From sequence record PP400788: a stretch of DNA of 64,000 nt; one strand, 5' to 3'. The notes beneath the pieces were generated by a model that saw only the letters and a list, made by a program, of their open reading frames with translations, made no database searches and was not told the origin of the DNA. This DNA comes from Escherichia phage FL33. This document shows, piece by piece, positions 1 through 45,340 of the stretch (the first letter of the stretch is position 1; each line of letters opens with the position of its first letter). The translations under genes and the position numbers were made by a program.

Positions 1-375
1 TTTCATTAAAATTTTTTCATCAAGTCGTTGTTGACTCAATTTAATAGCTGATTTGCATGGATTATAATCATTTTTCCATTCTACTGGAATATCGCTGATG
101 TCAGGAACTTCAGTATCTTTTATACTGAACCCTCGTTTTAAGCATTCCGTTATAATGTCTAATTGACGCTTTCGCAAAAATTCTAACTTATCGTAAAAGA
201 AAGTAACATGACCAGAACCTAAAATAAATTTAGAAGATATTTTAAAATCTTTAACGCGCTTACCATTTGCCACATGCTTACGAACTATACCAAAAACACG
301 TGGCAATTCACGATATTCTGCGATTAAATGTTGATCAGCAAGTTCAGATACTAAAGTCAAATTAATACGAGTCAT
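1..375 (-). CDS. denV: Endonuclease V (pyrimidine-dimer DNA glycosylase), N-terminal part; 3' end lies beyond the window edge
   Basis: Minus-strand ORF starting at ATG 375 with GGAGGG SD (rc of 381-386); translation [17 protein letters not shown]... matches T4 DenV N-terminus from memory; ORF runs off the window. Confidence 0.8.
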
Positions 376-434
376 TTTATCCCTCCAAGTAACTGTGAAT
401 ATACTATCACAATTCTAGGAGAAAGTAAACAACT

Positions 435-965
<531 letters not shown>

Positions 966-2611: not shown

Positions 2612-3188
2612 ATTCTCTACATTCCTTAACAAATTTTTCTAGTAATAAATCACTTTCAAAATTGGGATTTTCTACAAATTTATCAAAAAGATCATCAACA
2701 ATAGTTAAGATATTCTTTTTACTAAGAATACGTTTATTTTCATGCTTCGTTTCAGAATCAACTATAAGAGTAAAGAAATATTTCTTGCCCTGAAATTTTA
2801 CAGTAGTATCAATATAAAATAAATTTGACTTTTGTAAATTACGTTTAAACCATGCGTCACTTAAACTATAAACGCCAAGATAATCATAATCGTCGTTTAA
2901 ATAACAAACTGTCCATTCAGGAGAAATGAAATCAGTAAATTCAACGTCAAAATCGCATGTTAATAAATGAATTGATTCAATACTGTTAATAAGTATTCCA
3001 GGACGTATTAAAGACTTTTTACCTCTAGAAAATCTTCCAGAAAGACTTTCATCAGTTTCATATGAAGAACCCCAATAATAATTACGTCCTTCTGCCATAC
3101 GTTTAAGAGCATTTAGTAATTGGTCTGGAACATCAACCCGTCTTTGGAACTCTTCAAACATTGAATTGAAATCACTTTGCATTTTCAT
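2580..3188 (-). CDS. Hypothetical protein (202 aa), soluble, shares C-terminal FVKECR motif with downstream membrane paralogs
   Basis: ATG at 3188 with GGAG SD (rc of 3195-3205); C-terminal region overlaps start of next gene. Confidence 0.6.
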   Translation of the reverse strand: MKMQSDFNSMFEEFQRRVDVPDQLLNALKRMAEGRNYYWGSSYETDESLSGRFSRGKKSLIRPGILINSIESIHLLTCDFDVEFTDFISPEWTVCYLNDDYDYLGVYSLSDAWFKRNLQKSNLFYIDTTVKFQGKKYFFTLIVDSETKHENKRILSKKNILTIVDDLFDKFVENPNFESDLLLEKFVKECREYVKAITIPSK

Positions 3189-3209
3189 TCCTATTTACTC
3201 CAAGTAATA

Positions 3210-3224
3210 GGGGCCGAAGCCCCT
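3210..3224 (-). other. Intergenic GC stem-loop (GGGGCCGAAGCCCC)
   Basis: Perfect 5-bp GC stem with GAA-type loop between stop of 3230..3823 gene and SD of the 2580..3188 gene; not followed by a clear T-run. Confidence 0.4.
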
Positions 3225-3229
3225 TATCA

Positions 3230-3823
3230 TTATTTCAGAGAATTAATATATTCCTGGACATCGGCAGAGGTAGTTTCAACCCCAGAAATATTGCCGTTAA
3301 AAGTTTCAACTCGAGCAAGGGTATCTTCAATATCAACCTTAGTCAGTGCTGCAATTTCAACTACATCATCGGCAGTACTAATTCCAAGGGCATTCGCTGC
3401 ACGAGTTTCACGGATATATTCCAATTTAACCGCAAGTTCTTGACGAGCATCATCTAACTCAACTACTTTCTTGGCGATTTCAATTCGCATTTCAGCATAA
3501 CCGTCAGCCTTAGTAGTCAACTGCTCAGCTGTTCGACGATATAGTAAACCGAGTTTAGCATGCATTGTTACATCTTGGCCTTCGGAAAGAAGTTTACGAA
3601 TTTCACGCTCTTTTGATTCGGCCTGTCGATTCTTTTCGATAACAAGTTCACGAATACGTTTTTCTTCGTTAATAGATTTAACAGAAGCAGTTTTTAGATC
3701 TTTAATTTTATCAAGTAGTTTTGCTGCTGCAGCAGTATACTGTTCTTCGACAGATAGATTTTTAGCCATAGCAGAACCAAGTTTAGTGCGAATAAACTCA
3801 ACAATTTTCTTCAGTGTGTTCAT
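3230..3823 (-). CDS. Coiled-coil protein, possible PspA/IM30 (phage-shock protein A)-like
   Basis: 197 aa, heptad-rich charged sequence; segments [27 protein letters not shown] and [12 protein letters not shown] resemble E. coli PspA from memory; AAGGAA SD upstream of ATG 3823. Confidence 0.45.
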
Positions 3824-3866: not shown

Positions 3867-4043
3867 TTATACTCCGGATAGTTTGTAAACTATTTCAACA
3901 TCGCCTTTTGCTGCTTTATAACCTTCAGCCCAAGATATAACCGACTTCTTATCTGAAGATTCAAATTCTGGCATTGGGCTTTCGCCAATGTTCACGCAGT
4001 ATGTTTCTTCATTTTCGTCGAACCAAATAATTAAAGTAGTCAT
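3867..4043 (-). CDS. Small hypothetical protein (58 aa), below the ORF-track size cutoff
   Basis: ATG at 4043 preceded by GGAGAAATAA; translation MTTLIIWFDENEETYCVNIGESPMPEFESSDKKSVISWAEGYKAAKGDVEIVYKLSGV; stop TAA at 3867-3869. Confidence 0.5.
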   Translation of the reverse strand: MTTLIIWFDENEETYCVNIGESPMPEFESSDKKSVISWAEGYKAAKGDVEIVYKLSGV

Positions 4044-4112
4044 TTATTTCTCCGTTTTCTGTATTTGTTTTGATAAGTCTATAATAACACCGTCCTTGGC
4101 GCTTGTACACAA

Positions 4113-4376
4113 TTATTTCATATTATTGAAATATTCTTCTGCGATTTCATCGTTATCATGGTAAACTTTAGAAGACAGTTTAACATAACCTTCAGCAGTG
4201 AACATGTTAATCACAACCTTTACAGTATACCACTGACCATCTTCATTACCCATTACTGCATAGGTTTCAAACATCGGATGGTCAGGACCGATAACTTTAA
4301 TATCATTCACTGTACGACCGAAATCTTCTGAAACACATTTCATAAAGAAGTTGAACAGTTCGCCGTAATTATCCAT
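4113..4376 (-). CDS. Hypothetical protein (87 aa)
   Basis: Track ORF 4113..4388 begins at TTG; first ATG (MDNYGELF...) at 4376 is preceded by GGAG at correct spacing. Confidence 0.6.
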   Translation of the reverse strand: MDNYGELFNFFMKCVSEDFGRTVNDIKVIGPDHPMFETYAVMGNEDGQWYTVKVVINMFTAEGYVKLSSKVYHDNDEIAEEYFNNMK

Positions 4377-4412
4377 TTCGTTCTCCAAGTTGTTTTCTGT
4401 ATCAGTAGTTGA

Positions 4413-4470
4413 TAGTTGTATAGTACCATGGAAGAACAGGGATGTAAACAGTTTTGTGAAAAATTTTTAA
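4413..4470 (-). promoter_or_regulatory. T4-type early promoter (copy 1 of 3 near-identical promoter repeats)
   Basis: Minus strand: A/T-rich UP region, GTTTACAT (-35; fwd gtaaac 4444-4449), 17-18 nt spacer, TACTAT -10 (fwd tagta 4421-4425); same architecture at 7305-7360 and 7668-7725. Confidence 0.55.
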
Positions 4471-4580
4471 AAAATTTTAGAGAATTCTAGGGTCAGGAGG
4501 GGCAATTAAAAGGTAGGATAATATATTATAAAGGGTATAAACCAAATGATGCCTAGAGAGGCCCGGAAAGGCCTAGATAC

Positions 4581-4612
4581 CAAAAAGCCCCAACCTTTCG
4601 GCTGGGGCTAAG
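4581..4612 (-). terminator. Rho-independent terminator hairpin (copy A of a 35-nt repeat)
   Basis: Minus strand AGCCCCAGCCGAAAGGTTGGGGCT followed by TTTTTGG; immediately downstream of the 4617..5090 gene. Confidence 0.7.
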
Positions 4613-4616
4613 AATG

Positions 4617-5090
4617 TTATTTGATTTGTTTAGCAGACCAAATGCGGTCTTTGATGATTTTTTGAATGTCTTCAACATACTCTAGGTCATGAGCATGTGG
4701 GTTATCTTTGAAACTATAAGCACGAGCTAGTTTTTGGCCTTCAGTTTTGATTACTAAAAGCTCTTTAAGGATAGCTTCATATTTAGCGATAATTCCTTTA
4801 ACAATATTTTTTTCTTGTGCAGCTTTAGGATCTGCTTTAGGAGCAGGTTTACCCGAAGCCTTTGCAAAAGCAGCACCAGTAGCAACTAAACTTTTCCAGG
4901 CCATACTAACCGCATTTCCTGTAAATCCTTCTGCTTTCATGTCGCGAGCAAACTTGAATCGTGATTCGTCAGAAGCATCTTTATAGGAATATTTACCCGC
5001 TGCAATGGCTGCTTTTGCGACAGCTTGAATTTCGGTGCTAGATGCTTCATTTAACACCGCTTCATTTAAAAATTGAGTATATGATTTCAT
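4617..5090 (-). CDS. Late-expressed protein with capsid-targeting-sequence-like N-terminus (predicted head-packaged internal protein)
   Basis: 157 aa from ATG 5090 (AGGAAA SD); N-terminus MKSYTQFLNEAVLNEASSTE resembles T4 internal-protein CTS MKTYQEF with LxE motifs typical of gp21 protease sites; Ala/Lys-rich body; track ORF start 5267 is upstream of a terminator and promoter and is rejected. Confidence 0.6.
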   Translation of the reverse strand: MKSYTQFLNEAVLNEASSTEIQAVAKAAIAAGKYSYKDASDESRFKFARDMKAEGFTGNAVSMAWKSLVATGAAFAKASGKPAPKADPKAAQEKNIVKGIIAKYEAILKELLVIKTEGQKLARAYSFKDNPHAHDLEYVEDIQKIIKDRIWSAKQIK

Positions 5091-5128
5091 CTTATTTCCT
5101 GTTTTAATTTGTAGATTTAATATACTAA

Positions 5129-5136
5129 TATTTATA
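5129..5136 (-). promoter_or_regulatory. T4-type late promoter TATAAATA (minus strand) for the 4617..5090 gene
   Basis: Forward TATTTATA at 5129-5136, between the upstream terminator hairpin and the SD/ATG at 5090. Confidence 0.55.
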
Positions 5137-5168
5137 CCAAAAAGCCCCAACCTTTCGGTCGGGGCTAA
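5136..5168 (-). terminator. Rho-independent terminator hairpin (copy B of the 35-nt repeat)
   Basis: TACCAAAAAGCCCCAACCTTTCGGTCGGGGCTAAG; differs from copy A (4578-4612) by a 2-nt swap; on the minus strand the stem is followed by a T-run. Confidence 0.7.
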
Positions 5169-5214
5169 GCCTTGCGGCAACCTTGTCGGGGTTCCACCTG
5201 CTAAGGCAAGTGTT

Positions 5215-5309
5215 TGTACGAAACGCCGGGATTCGAACCCGGTTATTAAGCAGTTGACGCTACTCAATATTTTTAAAAGGCCATATCTCGACCATATCCG
5301 AACGTTCCG
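5215..5309 (-). ncRNA. tRNA-like element / candidate small stable RNA (non-canonical)
   Basis: Minus strand has a perfect T-arm CCGGG-UUCGAAU-CCCGG (fwd 5226-5242) and a 7-bp acceptor-like pairing (fwd 5219-5225 with 5303-5309, one G-U), but the 5' half shows direct repeats (GAUAUGG x2), not D/anticodon arms. Confidence 0.35.
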
Positions 5310-5481
5310 TCAAAAACGCTACTCGGCTTATGGCAAAGATATTTCCTCGAATCGATAATTCGGTGCGCCGTTTCTGCTGTGATATAAGGGGGCATTAACA
5401 AACATAAAGATTTATTAATGCCAGTCCTTAAACAGGGAACATCAGTCCGACGACTTGCCGGTAGCGACCCGGCTTCTTGTC

Positions 5482-5557
5482 TGGTCGAGGCAGTAGGGAT
5501 CGAACCTACGACCCAGGACTTAGAAGGTCCTTGCTCTTCCTTCTGAGCTATGCCTCG
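5482..5557 (-). tRNA. tRNA-Arg (anticodon UCU)
   Basis: 76-nt cloverleaf: acceptor 5486-5492/5551-5557 fully paired, T-loop fwd GATCGAA, anticodon stem 5515-5519/5527-5531, loop CUUCUAA, CCA encoded (fwd TGG 5482-5484). Confidence 0.85.
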
Positions 5558-5561
5558 TATT

Positions 5562-5636
5562 TGGCGGACGTGATAGGATTCGAACCTATAACCAATCGCT
5601 TAACAGGCGATCGCTCTGCCATTGAGCTACACATCC
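5562..5636 (-). tRNA. tRNA-Asn (anticodon GUU)
   Basis: 75-nt cloverleaf: acceptor 5566-5572/5630-5636 (one G-U), T-arm ATAGG-ATTCGAA-CCTAT, anticodon stem 5595-5599/5607-5611 perfect, loop CUGUUAA, CCA encoded. Confidence 0.75.
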
Positions 5637-5640
5637 AAAT

Positions 5641-5727
5641 TGGTGGGGAGTGGTGGAGTCGAACCACCCGAGTCGCAATGACAATGGATTTACAGTCCAC
5701 ACCGCTACCTCTACGGGATAACTCCCC
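5641..5727 (-). tRNA. tRNA-Tyr (anticodon GUA), long-variable-arm type
   Basis: 87 nt: acceptor 5645-5651/5721-5727 perfect, T-arm GGTGG-AGTCGAA-CCACC, anticodon stem 5684-5688/5696-5700 (one G-U), loop CUGUAAA, CCA encoded. Confidence 0.7.
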
Positions 5728-5736
5728 AAATTAATT

Positions 5737-5811
5737 TGGTGGCCCTGGGTGGAATTGAACCACCATCTGGCGATTATGAGTCGCTTGCTTGAACCTTCCA
5801 GCTACAGGGCC
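5737..5811 (-). tRNA. tRNA with anticodon CAU (Ile-lysidine type or Met)
   Basis: Acceptor 5741-5747/5805-5811 perfect, T-arm GGTGG-AATTGAA-CCACC, anticodon loop CUCAUAA; position corresponds to T4 tRNA-Ile. Confidence 0.75.
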
Positions 5812-5812
5812 T

Positions 5813-5888
5813 TGGTGCTGATTGACGGAATTGAACCGCCGACCTTCTCATTACAAGTGAGTTGCTCTACCTACTGAGCTAAATCAGC
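5813..5888 (-). tRNA. tRNA-Thr (anticodon UGU)
   Basis: Acceptor 5817-5823/5882-5888 perfect, T-loop fwd AATTGAA, D stem GCTC/GAGC, anticodon loop CUUGUAA, CCA encoded. Confidence 0.8.
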
Positions 5889-5894
5889 AAAATC

Positions 5895-5984
5895 TGGCGG
5901 AGGCGATAGGATTTGAACCTATGAGTCGCCGGAGCGACTGCCGGTTTTCAAGACCGGTGCATTAAACCACTCTGCCACGCCTCC
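5895..5984 (-). tRNA. tRNA-Ser (anticodon UGA), long-variable-arm type
   Basis: 90 nt: acceptor 5899-5905/5978-5984 perfect, T-arm ATAGG-ATTTGAA-CCTAT, variable-arm hairpin GTCGC/GCGAC, anticodon stem CCGGT/ACCGG, loop CUUGAAA. Confidence 0.85.
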
Positions 5985-5986
5985 AG

Positions 5987-6060
5987 TCTCCGTGGCAGGA
6001 TTTGAACCTGCGACATTCTGCTCCCAAAGCAGACGCTCTACCAAACTGAGCTACACGGAG
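5987..6060 (-). tRNA. tRNA-Pro (anticodon UGG); CCA not encoded
   Basis: Acceptor 5988-5994/6054-6060 perfect, T-arm GCAGG-ATTTGAA-CCTGC, anticodon stem TCTGC/GCAGA, loop UUUGGGA; abuts tRNA-Ser with a 2-nt spacer (dimeric precursor arrangement as in T4). Confidence 0.85.
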
Positions 6061-6072
6061 TAAATTAAATTT

Positions 6073-6144
<72 letters not shown>

Positions 6145-6149
6145 AAATT

Positions 6150-6236
6150 TGGTGCGAGAAGTGGGACTCGAACCCACAAGGAAATCATTCCGCAGCATTT
6201 TAAGTGCTGTGCCTTTACCAATTTGACCATTCTCGC
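6150..6236 (-). tRNA. tRNA-Leu (anticodon UAA), long-variable-arm type
   Basis: 87 nt: acceptor 6154-6160/6230-6236 perfect, T-arm GTGGG-ACTCGAA-CCCAC, anticodon stem CAGCA/TGCTG, loop CUUAAAA, CCA encoded. Confidence 0.85.
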
Positions 6237-6237
6237 G

Positions 6238-6310
6238 CTGGGAATAAAGGACTCGAACCTTTGCATCCTGGAATCAAAATCCAGTGCCTTACCAACTTGG
6301 CTAATTCCCA
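6238..6310 (-). tRNA. tRNA-Gln (anticodon UUG); CCA not encoded
   Basis: Acceptor 6239-6245/6304-6310 perfect, T-arm AAAGG-ACTCGAA-CCTTT, anticodon stem CTGGA/TCCAG, loop UUUUGAU; separated from tRNA-Leu by 1 nt. Confidence 0.85.
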
Positions 6311-7304: not shown

Positions 7305-7360
7305 GGGTAATAGTATCACAACTAAAACCCTATGTAAACAACTTTGTGAAAAATTTATTA
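7305..7360 (-). promoter_or_regulatory. T4-type early promoter (copy 2 of 3)
   Basis: Minus strand GTTTACAT (fwd gtaaac 7334-7339), 17-nt spacer, TACTAT (fwd tagtat 7311-7316); shares a ~22-nt core ATGTAAACA(A/G)(C/T)TTTGTGAAA with copies 1 and 3. Confidence 0.55.
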
Positions 7361-7642
7361 CAAAAGATTTTTAGCAATAATTTTAAGCTGAGCTACTGAA
7401 ATATGCTTGGCTTTAAACAAAGCAGTTTCTTCAGCAGGGGAGATAACGATTGTAGCACCATCTTTCTTAGCGGACCATCCATCACCCAGGTAAACAGTAC
7501 CTTTGACTTCTTCGCCATCAACCAGGCTAATCATCGGTTTACCTTCACGTCCTTTGTTTGCTTTAATAACTTCAGAAGTAAGGGTCGCTTCAGTCAAAGT
7601 AGAAGCATTAGTCGTTGAAGTGAATTCTTGATAAGTTTTCAT
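7358..7642 (-). CDS. Internal protein (head-packaged) with canonical capsid targeting sequence
   Basis: 94 aa beginning MKTYQEF (T4 IP capsid-targeting sequence) followed by LTE/TSE candidate gp21 cleavage sites; sits in the ipI position upstream of 57B. Confidence 0.75.
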   Translation of the reverse strand: MKTYQEFTSTTNASTLTEATLTSEVIKANKGREGKPMISLVDGEEVKGTVYLGDGWSAKKDGATIVISPAEETALFKAKHISVAQLKIIAKNLL

Positions 7643-7667
7643 TTTATTTTCCTAATTAATTTTGATG

Positions 7668-8411
<744 letters not shown>

Positions 8412-9186: not shown

Positions 9187-9717
9187 TTAAACTTCTGCTA
9201 TAATTTTACCATCTTTTTCTACTTGAAAATACGTATAAGGAATCGTTGCAGTACATACTAAAGCCGGGTCTGAATCTTCTGTGTAGCTAAATTCTACTTC
9301 AGATAGGTCAGAAACCCAAGGCTTATAAAAATTTATTGACATCACGATTTCAGTTTTGCTATTATCTAAGATGTAAAGCGTAATGTACTCAGGACCTGTT
9401 TTTTGGGCAGTATTTTCACCTGTAAGATAGTTGCTAGTTCCTAGCATCCATTCATACATTCCTATCCACGACTTAAGTTCTTCATCAACTATAAATCTCA
9501 CAATAAGTGGATCATACTCAAATGTAACACCTGGACGTTGTGCTCGGCCCAGTCCAAACGGCCCAGTCACAGTATCAGTAACAGGTATTCTAATTCCTGG
9601 AATAGGAACTGACTGAGCATTTAAAGTAAAAGCAGATGTAGTATTACTATGTGGTATTGATACTACAAAGTTAGTTGTATTTGCTTGGTTAAAAATTTGT
9701 TGCAGAGCTTGCGACAT
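9187..9717 (-). CDS. 3: Tail completion / sheath stabilizer protein gp3
   Basis: Start at ATG 9717 (MSQALQQIF..., GAGGAA SD) giving 176 aa as in T4 gp3; track start 9798 rejected. Confidence 0.85.
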   Translation of the reverse strand: MSQALQQIFNQANTTNFVVSIPHSNTTSAFTLNAQSVPIPGIRIPVTDTVTGPFGLGRAQRPGVTFEYDPLIVRFIVDEELKSWIGMYEWMLGTSNYLTGENTAQKTGPEYITLYILDNSKTEIVMSINFYKPWVSDLSEVEFSYTEDSDPALVCTATIPYTYFQVEKDGKIIAEV

Positions 9718-9823
9718 ATATTCCTCATAATGCTTTATAACTGTTGGTGGTATAATGGGTCTAAGTCCCTTCCATTCAATTCCATTTAGAACAAACAACA
9801 GAAAAGAATGGAAGATAATAGAA

Positions 9824-10648
9824 TTAGATATTTGACCAGACTTTGTTTGCAGAGAAACGTTTTCCTTTTGAAACGAACTGCTGAAGTGGCATCAACACAA
9901 CGTTCGCCCAGTCTTTCGGGGCGATTTCAACAAGGCTACCCATAATATTACCAGGTATATATGCCTTAATCATTTGGTCTGCACCCCTAAATCCTTTCAC
10001 TTGACTCCAATCAATTTTTAATTTCGTTTTATTAGTAATAGTAGGTGTATTTGCATATTGCTTTAAAAGCTCTTCTAGGAATTGCTGACGAGCTTTAGGT
10101 GGAATATAGTGCAAGTTTAATCCGTACATTAAGTTATGCTTACCTAAACCAAGGTAAATTATCAAAGGAAATTTATCCCAGTAAGGAAGAGTTTCCTTGT
10201 GTTTAGCATCATAAGCAAAAGCATATATTCGTCCCGGCTGCGGGCGAACAACTTTATGTCCTTTTACTTGCTTAATAGTTTCAGCAAACCATTTTCTGGT
10301 TTTATTATTAATTGCTGCACCTTCATTACGAATTTTATCGCGCAATGTTTGTCTGAATGAATTTATCATAAGCAGTTGTCTTTCTTGCTTATTGAGCTTA
10401 TTCATTGGTTTTGATTCAAGCTTTTGAATCTTTTCAGCTGTTTTAATTCCTGAAGCATATTTTGACATTGCCGAAGTAAACGTAGAGTATTTGATTCCTC
10501 TTTCTTCAGCAAATTGTTTTCCTGTCATTCCTTTTGCTTTGGCCTTTTTATATTCAAGACCTATTTGAATCCATTTCTTTTCGTTTAATGATTGCTTAAC
10601 CTTTGGAACTTGGGGAGTGCTTTCATTAATTATTTGAAAAATAGCCAT
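9824..10648 (-). CDS. 2: DNA end protector protein gp2
   Basis: 274 aa, size and position as T4 gp2. Confidence 0.85.
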
Positions 10649-44209: not shown

Positions 44210-45340
44210 TTATGGATAGGTATAGATGATACCAGTTTCTAAAGCAGTTTTATGAATGATGTATCCATTACGCGATTCTTGAACATCAACTTCTGGATAG
44301 TCTTTCATCATCTTCTGAAGAGTGTAACGATGCAAGTAGTACTTACTATCTGGATCGTCAGTTTTCCAATCTTTACCTTCTTCAGTCATTTTTTGGATTT
44401 CATCCATAACCCACCAACCGCACCAGATATAAGCTGAAGTACGATGTGGAAGAGGATGAACATAAGGCAATTCACCTTCTGGTTCCGGAGCAACTTTATC
44501 AGTTACCTGAACTTGACCAGTCGCTTTAACTGTTTTACTATCATAGTCAGTTGCTGTAACGACAGCAGTAACTTCAATAGTTTGGCTTCCAATAGATGAG
44601 GTATCAACAGTATATACGTTAGTTGACCCTTCTACAGGAGAAGAATCTTTCTTCCATGAATACGTAATTTGTGCTTCTTCCGGAGCATCCGTAACATTAG
44701 CGGTAAATGTAGCCGAAGCATCTTGCTGAACATTAATAGAAGGAGGAGTCAATGTAACCTGTGGATTCATTGTCTTCTTATTAACTGTCAATGATACTTC
44801 ATTAGAAGTAACTTCCTTTTCATTGTAATTTTCAGCAGTTACTTGGGCTACGCATTTAATTCTTTTTACTCCACTTGTAGTTGGAGTATAGCTAAATGTA
44901 GAGTTAGTTTCTCCACCAACTTGTGAATCATCTACATACCACTGATACGTAGCAGACGCTCCATCAGGTTGAGAAGCTAAGGCAGCAGTAAATTGAACTG
45001 GGGCTCCGATTACTCCAGCGTCAGGGCTATTAGGAGTTACAGCTAAGGTGGTCGTTTGTGTCTTATTTTGAACTGTGATAGTTGTAGTAGCTTCTGCTGT
45101 TTCAGCATCAGTATCTGGAACTGTATTTGTTGCAACTACTTTAATAGTCTTTTGTCCAGCAGGTCCTTTTAATACATAATCAAAAGTTGCTTCAGCTCCA
45201 TCTTGTGGAGCATCATCTACAGTCCAAGCATATGTAATAGTTCCGCCTTCAGTTTCACCACTGGGTGTAGCAGTAAACTGCTTAGTTTCATCAATAACCC
45301 CTGTCGGTGTTTTAGGAGTTATATCAACTGTAAAAGTCAT
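44210..45340 (-). CDS. hoc: Highly immunogenic outer capsid protein Hoc
   Basis: 376 aa with repeated Ig-like T/V-rich domains (VTxNxxS..Y.W motifs) and conserved C-terminal capsid-binding region. Confidence 0.9.
   Translation of the reverse strand: MTFTVDITPKTPTGVIDETKQFTATPSGETEGGTITYAWTVDDAPQDGAEATFDYVLKGPAGQKTIKVVATNTVPDTDAETAEATTTITVQNKTQTTTLAVTPNSPDAGVIGAPVQFTAALASQPDGASATYQWYVDDSQVGGETNSTFSYTPTTSGVKRIKCVAQVTAENYNEKEVTSNEVSLTVNKKTMNPQVTLTPPSINVQQDASATFTANVTDAPEEAQITYSWKKDSSPVEGSTNVYTVDTSSIGSQTIEVTAVVTATDYDSKTVKATGQVQVTDKVAPEPEGELPYVHPLPHRTSAYIWCGWWVMDEIQKMTEEGKDWKTDDPDSKYYLHRYTLQKMMKDYPEVDVQESRNGYIIHKTALETGIIYTYP

Follow-up and report, generated by a model that had tools for sequence, protein, structure and literature searches.

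A predicted late cassette bounded by terminator hairpins encodes a probable internal head protein in T4-like phages

Based on the analysis of a 64,000-nucleotide (nt) stretch of the Escherichia phage FL33 genome (sequence record PP400788; hereafter "the window"), we identified a compact cassette between e.8 and rnaC in which a gene for a 157-amino-acid (aa) protein, called IpX in this analysis, is preceded by a T4-type late promoter and bounded by two near-identical terminator hairpins. We consider it probable that the product is an internal protein packaged into the phage head; a specific anti-restriction role, proposed by analogy with characterised proteins bearing the same kind of leader, is plausible, at or a little under an even prospect. 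The observations behind this reading are the anatomy of the cassette, the match of its N-terminal leader to the T4 capsid targeting sequence, conservation across genera, and polymorphic presence or absence among related phages. Whole-genome scans used Escherichia phage FL34 (PP400789.1; Tequatrovirus), in which the region is 100% identical to the window. The cassette comprises, in window coordinates:

4577..4612 (-), downstream copy of the terminator hairpin, starting 4 nt after the stop codon
4617..5090 (-), gene for the 157-aa candidate internal protein, an open reading frame (ORF) with an ATG start
5046-5060 (-), second candidate cleavage site, A-V-L-N-E
5061..5090 (-), putative capsid targeting sequence, codons 1-10 (MKSYTQFLNE), with the first L-N-E site
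5095..5100 (-), Shine-Dalgarno sequence AGGAAA, 4 nt before the ATG, within ACAGGAAATAAGATG
5129..5136 (-), T4-type late promoter TATAAATA, an exact motif 38 nt upstream of the ATG
5134..5169 (-), upstream hairpin copy, which follows the tRNA/rnaC/rnaD cluster as its resident terminator

The 157-aa protein begins MKSYTQFLNEAVLNEASSTE, and the proposal that this start is a close variant of the T4 capsid targeting sequence was borne out by alignment with the leaders of annotated internal proteins. For the T4 internal protein IPIII, the first 10 residues are enough to package foreign proteins, amber-suppression experiments identified residues 4 and 7 as most important for targeting, with 8 and 10 controlling processing, and the prohead protease gp21 cuts after L/I-X-E (PMC9026906, a review of L. 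W. Black's work). MKSYTQFLNE has Y4, F7, L8 and E10, matching all four experimentally critical positions, including the Y/F4 and F7 pair associated with targeting. At the level of sequence, the gp21 rule is fitted by both L8-N9-E10↓A and L13-N14-E15↓A. The original prediction had also pointed to an STE motif; of the proposed gp21-type sites, those at residues 8-10 and 13-15 stand, whereas STE at residues 18-20 falls outside the rule because it places serine at P3.

To place this leader among all possible starts, we derived a scoring matrix from annotated internal proteins, using 12 non-redundant leaders (T4 IPI and IPIII; RB32 Ip4, Ip5, Ip7 and Ip9; PST IpIII to IpVI; four RB69 proteins; WG01 Ip7 and Ip9) with the 157-aa family excluded, and applied it across the complete FL34 genome to all ATG, GTG and TTG starts with 40 codons or more (n=2,997):

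Rank 1, Ip4, 33.3 bits
Rank 2, IPI, 26.5 bits
Rank 3, a 54-aa ORF beginning MKTYKEFIKE, 21.9 bits
Rank 4, the 157-aa candidate, 11.8 bits (z = +5.3)
Rank 5, the best remaining start, 4.1 bits

The similarity to known internal proteins thus holds on alignment and places the candidate fourth of the 2,997 starts. Its lower score reflects T5, Q6 and L8, which are rare in the training set. Leaders of orthologues are more canonical (MKTYNEFLNE, MKSYAEFLTE, and MKTYNEFLTE in ORF139 of Dhakavirus WG01), with those carrying MKTYNEFLTE or MKTYNEFLNE showing 70-80% identity to the 157-aa protein, and the RB32/G50-type leader reads SYAQFLNEAVLNEASSTEIQAVAK, compared with SYTQFLNE... in FL34. Given that leader codons differ synonymously among orthologues (TAT/TAC, TTA/TTG), the constraint appears to act on the protein. 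The third-ranking ORF was unexpected, being a capsid-targeting-like leader on an early-region gene; it lies outside the window, just upstream of the primase gene (FL34 record 141285..141449, or 44986..45150 (+) of the extracted piece), belongs to phrog_1823, of unknown function, and falls in a region called an anti-toxin-antitoxin island by Srikant et al.

The gene was also predicted to possess its own late promoter, and an exact TATAAATA was found at 5129-5136 as proposed. Across the window this motif occurs 24 times, against 9.1 +/- 3.0 expected from shuffles. The promoter straddles the junction of the cassette, its first three bases, TAT, belonging to the repeat and the remaining AAATA being specific to the cassette. 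The late promoter motif is kept upstream of orthologues in G50, Aplg8, WG01 (Dhakavirus) and KP1 (Jiaodavirus), and the composite of GC-rich hairpin, U-tract and GTATAAATA is kept in Tequatrovirus, Dhakavirus and Jiaodavirus, persisting in KP1 though the hairpin sequence there differs (CCCCGTCTTCGGACGGGG). Conservation of this paired promoter and terminator across three genera leads us to predict an insulated, monocistronic late transcript. The start layout AGGAAA(A)TAA(A/G)ATGAAA was also recovered in a comparison of regions upstream of internal-protein (ip) genes at the ipI locus. A longer, TTG-initiated ORF of 216 aa was rejected as the true gene because it runs through the hairpin into the rnaC flank; orthologues all start at the ATG.

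Two near-identical minus-strand terminators were expected to flank the unit, and both were recovered as a direct repeat of 36 nt, with 34/36 positions identical (94%) at a spacing of 557. Allowing up to 3 mismatches, no further copy occurs in the 64 kb (0 expected), and none was found in the rest of the FL34 genome. Both copies form, on the minus strand, a GC-rich 10-bp stem with a GAAA loop followed by UUUUUGG, with predicted RNA folding energies of -20.6 kcal/mol (z = -3.7) for the downstream copy and -20.3 kcal/mol (z = -3.5) for the upstream copy. The CT/TC difference between them exchanges A-U plus G.U for G.U plus A-U, and pairing is therefore kept. The core of the upstream hairpin is identical to the single copy present in T4 and T2.

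Comparison of the locus among T-even genomes, which had been proposed as a check on the cassette, revealed presence and absence that break exactly at the repeat boundary (T4, T2 and PST against FL34, RB32, RB14 and G50). In BLAST alignments, the T4 intervals matched by window positions 4113-4611 and 5134-5527 overlap, with one 35-nt hairpin common to both, and the same single-hairpin overlap was obtained for T2 and PST. As both window hairpins map to one T4 hairpin, the FL34 arrangement corresponds to a T4-type empty site plus 557 bp, comprising the gene and one hairpin copy. The flanks are 90-97% identical among T-even phages. An occupancy query with concatenated flanks was confounded by insertions and deletions in the tRNA region (segB, extra tRNAs), and loci were instead inspected individually, giving the following site states:

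Empty, with exactly one hairpin copy: T4, T2 and PST
157-aa gene only: FL34, RB32, Aplg8 (where the gene is unannotated) and fD1
187-aa gene only: RB14, and RB69, where it is frameshifted
Both genes, with three terminators: G50 and 11 more among the best 40 DNA matches

The GenBank note for RB32ORF133c describes it as 'flanked by 34 bp imperfect direct repeat', labels it hypothetical and leaves the leader unmentioned; for Ip7/Ip9 at the RB32 ipI locus, the corresponding note reads 'flanked by 43 bp direct repeat'. PST lacks the 157-aa gene, and its expert annotation is therefore silent on the family. Dhakavirus WG01 has a unit of two genes enclosed by a 31-nt repeat (97% identical) that belongs to the hairpin family of the cassette. 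The second gene of this unit, ORF138 (4489..5064 (+) of the extracted piece), is leaderless and lies downstream of the 154-aa orthologue; its type comprises proteins of 184-191 aa with a hydrophobic N-terminus, assigned to phrog_2143.

The 187-aa gene represents a second unannotated, leader-bearing family at the e.8-rnaC site, starting MKTYAEFLTE↓AAKL and present in 165 phage records. Its positions within the extracted pieces are:

2717..3280 (-), G50
5100..5663 (-), RB14
9429..9991, RB69, frameshifted

Upstream it carries the motif ATAAATA (7/8 bases), and its downstream hairpin is different. The hairpins on either side of the 187-aa cassette are not identical (75% identity over 28 nt). By BLASTP, the 187-aa and 157-aa proteins have only their first 11 residues in common. 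PHROGs groups both in phrog_2280; hhalign returned only a weak match of C-terminal helices between them (probability 17%).

The phrog_2280 assignment of the 157-aa protein carries the label 'unknown function'. An AlphaFold2 model (mean predicted local distance difference test score 74.6) predicts a poorly ordered leader (residues 1-10(15)), a confident three-helix N-domain (18-71), a disordered Lys/Pro/Ala linker (76-87; GKPAPKADPKAAQEK) and a helical hairpin (88-154). Within the N-domain, the motif GKYSYKD.SDE.RF.F is invariant across genera in the family alignment, and orthologues differ by a 5-residue indel just after the leader. The precursor contains 26 lysines and arginines, and the predicted mature form would be basic (computed pI ~9.5) with a mass of ~15.5-16 kDa. 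A deep homology search of 5.8 billion non-redundant protein clusters and of 1.84 billion 50%-identity representatives recovered ~10 clusters in each library, nearly all of them fragments or variants of the 157-aa family, and the few clusters with a source name all came from T-even-like phages. These matches mark a narrow family. It is also very common, with 511 matching phage records in the collection searched, and is called 'hypothetical' in every match listed and every record examined. The copy of the protein in Bas35 (WilhelmHis) is 98% identical. Searches of Pfam (including IPI_T4) and PADLOC returned no match to the protein, and Foldseek against BFVD and PDB returned only members of its own family and one protein of Serratia phage PS2, itself uncharacterised. 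Matches from a PDB profile search (a designer PPR protein, a streptavidin tail) were rejected as low-complexity chance.

Homologues in Klebsiella-type T4-like phages, such as that of KP1 (3995..4528 (+) of the extracted KP1 piece), retain the three-helix N-domain with a shortened leader (MKFKEFLAE, MLKFNEFLAE). In some of these the C-terminal half is unrelated, a sign that domains may have been shuffled among family members. Sharing of the N-domain between proteins of different C-terminal half makes the 157-aa protein appear modular.

Mass spectrometry of purified virions had been proposed as a check on packaging, and published data exist for a close orthologue. The g140 protein of fD1 (phiD1), 97.5% identical to the 157-aa protein, was scored as particle-associated at full threshold using liquid chromatography coupled to tandem mass spectrometry of purified virions (Table S3, PMC8309999; public dataset PXD026812). 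This detection agrees with the part of the prediction that places the protein in virions, though the preparation was of low specificity, which makes this detection weak evidence; the fD1 data show that the orthologue is expressed, and are compatible with packaging. The machinery expected to handle such a protein is encoded by the same phage, with the genes for gp22 scaffold (T4_CASP) and gp23 capsid protein (Gp23) adjoining that of gp21 in the window and gp55 encoded elsewhere in the FL34 genome:

37437..38075 (+), gp21 prohead serine protease (Pfam Peptidase_S77, 1.5e-111)

The predicted internal-protein repertoire of FL34 comprises Ip4, an IPI-type protein and the 157-aa protein, while tblastn searches for ipIII, Ip5, Ip7, Ip9 and the 187-aa gene found none of these in the FL34 genome.

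We propose the following explanation. Late in infection, gp55-RNA polymerase would use the TATAAATA lying directly against the tRNA/rnaC terminator's U-tract, starting ~6 nt downstream of the motif, and the resulting short monocistronic mRNA would end at the downstream hairpin copy, with transcript 3' ends predicted at both hairpins. MKSYTQFLNE would anchor the protein in the prohead's gp22 scaffolding core, where gp21, the trans-acting enzyme expected to remove the leader, would cut after L-N-E10 and/or L-N-E15 to free the basic ~15.5-16 kDa protein; a cut at E10 would yield the N-terminal peptide AVLNEASSTEIQAVAK, and a cut at E15 the peptide ASSTEIQAVAK. The processed protein would remain in the head with the DNA and be ejected into the next host, where it would most likely neutralise an immediate-acting defence, the best guess by analogy being a modification-dependent (type IV) restriction enzyme. 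Ip1, Ip2 and Ip3 block one GmrSD type IV restriction enzyme each, a different one in every case (PMC12373910; PMC9391042), and the leader-bearing Bas37_0260 inhibits McrBC (HIDEN-SEQ preprint, bioRxiv 10.1101/2025.11.20.689424). Given that all four characterised leader-bearing proteins act on modification-dependent restriction, a similar role is the most likely one by analogy. Searches against Pfam IPI_T4 and of PDB and BFVD folds found no homology to a characterised type IV inhibitor. With regard to the origin of the cassette, its late promoter, gene and terminator form a self-contained unit that may have entered the terminator already residing between e.8 and rnaC, duplicating it; a circle carrying promoter, gene and hairpin would produce this structure by a single crossover with that terminator. 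Recombination between the 36-bp direct repeats would permit precise loss of the unit, regenerating the empty site, and the conserved flanks would permit exchange between co-infecting phages.

Several points weigh against this account. Transcription timing, packaging, cleavage, ejection and target are steps that we infer. The leader scores 11.8 bits, compared with 26-33 for classic leaders, and a further L-K-E at residues 108-110, inside a predicted helix, would give a different mature product if it were cut. The fD1 preparation in which g140 was detected also scored DenV, lysozyme, NudE, 672 host proteins and 113-137/277 phage proteins (PMC8309999). Sequence and fold searches (Pfam, PADLOC, PDB and BFVD) gave no hint of function, and the gene lies outside the two classical ip loci, which are typical of internal proteins but do not strictly define them.

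Alternative explanations were also considered. Packaged through its leader, the protein might have a physical role as a lysine-rich filler of the scaffold core, neutralising or organising the packed DNA, with no specific host target. The basic mature form (pI ~9.5), the 26 lysines and arginines of the precursor and the Lys/Pro/Ala linker would suit such a role, and solid-state nuclear magnetic resonance has placed lysines of internal proteins in contact with DNA phosphates (reviewed in PMC3012670). Furthermore, since FL34 has no ipIII by tblastn and its denV-e site, where ipII and ipIII usually lie, has neither, the head may need substitute basic proteins. We nevertheless regard a filler as improbable: the gene is naturally dispensable, as the empty sites of T4, T2 and PST demonstrate, specific enzyme targets have been found for 4/4 internal proteins tested so far, and good conservation of the folded N-domain across genera suggests a specific interaction surface. 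A second alternative is an unpackaged protein with a cytoplasmic late role, whose leader likeness is a by-product of recombination reusing a module of ribosome binding site and first codons. Several observations argue against this. Among orthologues, residues 4, 7, 8 and 10 stay constant even with synonymous changes and the adjacent 5-residue indel, a late promoter is suitably timed for prohead assembly, the ten N-terminal residues of IPIII suffice to package foreign proteins (PMC9026906), and the fD1 orthologue was detected in virions. We thus find a cytoplasmic role highly improbable, even with a start region (AGGAAA(A)TAA(A/G)ATGAAA plus the first 33 nt) that is ~79% identical to that of Ip7 by manual count, an FL34 leader that is a diverged version, and the occurrence of MKTYKEFIKE on the early-region 54-aa ORF, from which the motif may occur on unpackaged proteins.

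A further alternative concerns the repeats and leaves packaging aside. The hairpins may be ordinary terminators and the repeat the scar of one ancient insertion with no continuing role, in which case exchange would proceed via the long flanks; we hold this to be a serious possibility, if short of likely. The hairpin is not dispersed, with two copies in the whole FL34 genome, both at the cassette, the 187-aa cassette has no identical bounding hairpins (75% over 28 nt), and flanks that are 90-97% identical among T-even phages are ample for homologous exchange. Conversely, empty sites in T4, T2 and PST hold exactly one copy, as expected from repeat-repeat recombination, the same hairpin family bounds a differently composed two-gene unit in Dhakavirus WG01, and repeat-flanked ip genes also occur at the RB32 ipI locus (43-bp repeat).

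Returning to the proposed packaged protein, we read the 157-aa family as a putative unrecognised internal-protein family at a third locus, one that passes the tests available from sequence. It shares with T4 IPI, IPII and IPIII (Ip1-3) a leader of ~10 residues with Y/F4, F7 and L/I-x-E at 8-10, and resembles them in that these proteins are small, mostly basic, non-essential and variable between T-even phages, with dissimilar mature parts. Similarity limited to the leader has been described among Ip1-3 (PMC12373910), and the same pattern was observed between the 157-aa and 187-aa proteins. In contrast to Ip1-3, which were characterised experimentally, the 157-aa protein is known here from its sequence and has no sequence or fold similarity to mature IPI (IPI*). 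Its gene lies between e.8 and rnaC, away from the ipI and ipII/ipIII loci, and is preceded by a GC-rich terminator and TATAAATA, whereas ipI-locus genes are preceded by an early promoter and an AT-rich stem-loop. Three differences therefore set the family apart from recognised internal proteins, namely the leader-only similarity, the third locus, and the composite of terminator and late promoter. Ip4-Ip9 of T2, T6 and RB phages (Repoila et al. 1994; GenBank annotations of RB32, RB14 and PST) were identified by the same leader criterion, and some are flanked by direct repeats; they are annotated as internal head proteins, whereas the 157-aa family is labelled hypothetical. The recently recognised Bas37_0260 also shares only the N-terminal leader with T4 internal proteins; it differs in its ipI locus and demonstrated target, and is likened to the 157-aa protein by description only. 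A looser analogy is provided by the Dar proteins of phage P1, which are likewise head-loaded and injected to protect incoming DNA, where phage, packaging route and proteins are all unrelated. The ip genes have been attributed to two variable loci and said to be absent elsewhere (PMC2839356), Petrov 2010 does not mention ip genes, and the 157-aa family may already be one of the 'more than 30 variants' for which Comeau 2007 is cited.

The architecture of the cassette also recalls promoter-early stem-loops (PeSLs; Arbiol 2010, Comeau 2014), in which a composite of terminator stem-loop and promoter bounds variable ORFs. Here, hairpin and U-tract run directly into TATAAATA and two copies bound the gene, an architecture expected from integration or excision at a stem-loop. 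Unlike PeSLs, the cassette has a late-type promoter in place of an early sigma70-like one, and its element occurs at one site, whereas PeSLs are dispersed through hyperplastic regions. A broader and somewhat doubtful extension would take the e.8-rnaC junction as a third, overlooked internal-protein locus equipped with an exchange module of its own, in which a late promoter joined to a terminator hairpin would be the late-gene counterpart of PeSLs, and the 157-aa and 187-aa proteins as injected inhibitors of still-unpaired defences, built from shuffled domains.

Each characterised internal protein is specific for one enzyme variant. Given that known internal proteins each block one type IV enzyme variant, every uncharacterised family represents a candidate inhibitor-defence pair, and such families are candidate host-range determinants in therapeutic T4-like phages. 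The 157-aa family is of interest chiefly because it is ready to be screened for anti-defence activity and because it corrects annotation practice: lying outside the usual ip loci, the gene has been missed by position-based annotation, and leader-based annotation would find it. The design of terminator plus late promoter also extends the idea of stem-loops as exchange points, which has hitherto rested on early-gene regions.

The genomic context of the cassette within the window is as follows:

1..434 (-), denV, running off the window start
435..929 (-), lysozyme gene e
nudE, then e.2 to e.8 (-), with e.8 at 4113..4388
157-aa gene cassette (-), between e.8 and rnaC
5170..5481 (-), rnaC/rnaD-like stable-RNA region, ~90% identical to the T4 region annotated rnaC/rnaD
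5482..6310 (-), cluster of 10 transfer RNA (tRNA) genes: Arg, Asn, Tyr, Met, Thr, Ser, Pro, Gly, Leu and Gln
trna.2 to trna.4, ipI, 57B, 57A and gene 1 (-), beyond the tRNA cluster in that order
7358..7642 (-), ipI-type internal protein gene, MKTYQEFTST...LTE↓A (Pfam IPI_T4, 1.3e-51; phrog_4363, 'internal virion protein')

The rnaC/rnaD-like region, downstream of the tRNA cluster, forms the right-hand flank of the insertion site. The cassette has a GC content of 37.0-37.8% (36.0% in the window), which falls at the 72nd percentile and gives no sign of foreign origin relative to the 64-kb window. The tRNA cluster lacks the segB homing-endonuclease gene, which in T4 accompanies 8 tRNAs, and this region varies widely among relatives. 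Another small swap within the same hyperplastic region was identified at 3867..4043 (-), where an unrelated 58-aa ORF (phrog_5461, similar to RB14ORF134) takes the place of T4 e.7. In FL34, denV directly adjoins e, whereas T4 has ipII/ipIII between them; the same denV-e adjacency was found in fD1. The FL34 gene for Ip4 (157 aa, MKTYQEFITE) is found past denV, immediately beyond the edge of the window, at 143..616 of the adjoining extracted piece.

The ipI-type gene served as the in-window reference for a recognised leader-bearing gene. Upstream of it, at 7643..7714 (-), GTTTACA-N-GATACTAT resembles a T4 early promoter and overlaps the inverted repeat GATGAGGTA...TACCTCATC; no exact TATAAATA was found directly upstream of ipI. 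GTTTACA...GATACTAT with an AT-rich inverted repeat also precedes the ipI-locus genes for IPI, Ip5, Ip7 and Ip9, including those of RB32 and WG01, an element that Repoila et al. described and that Arbiol et al. took up in discussion (PMC2839356). Just upstream of e, two exact copies of TATAAATA occur 13 nt apart (943..963 (-)), and the same pair is present in T4.

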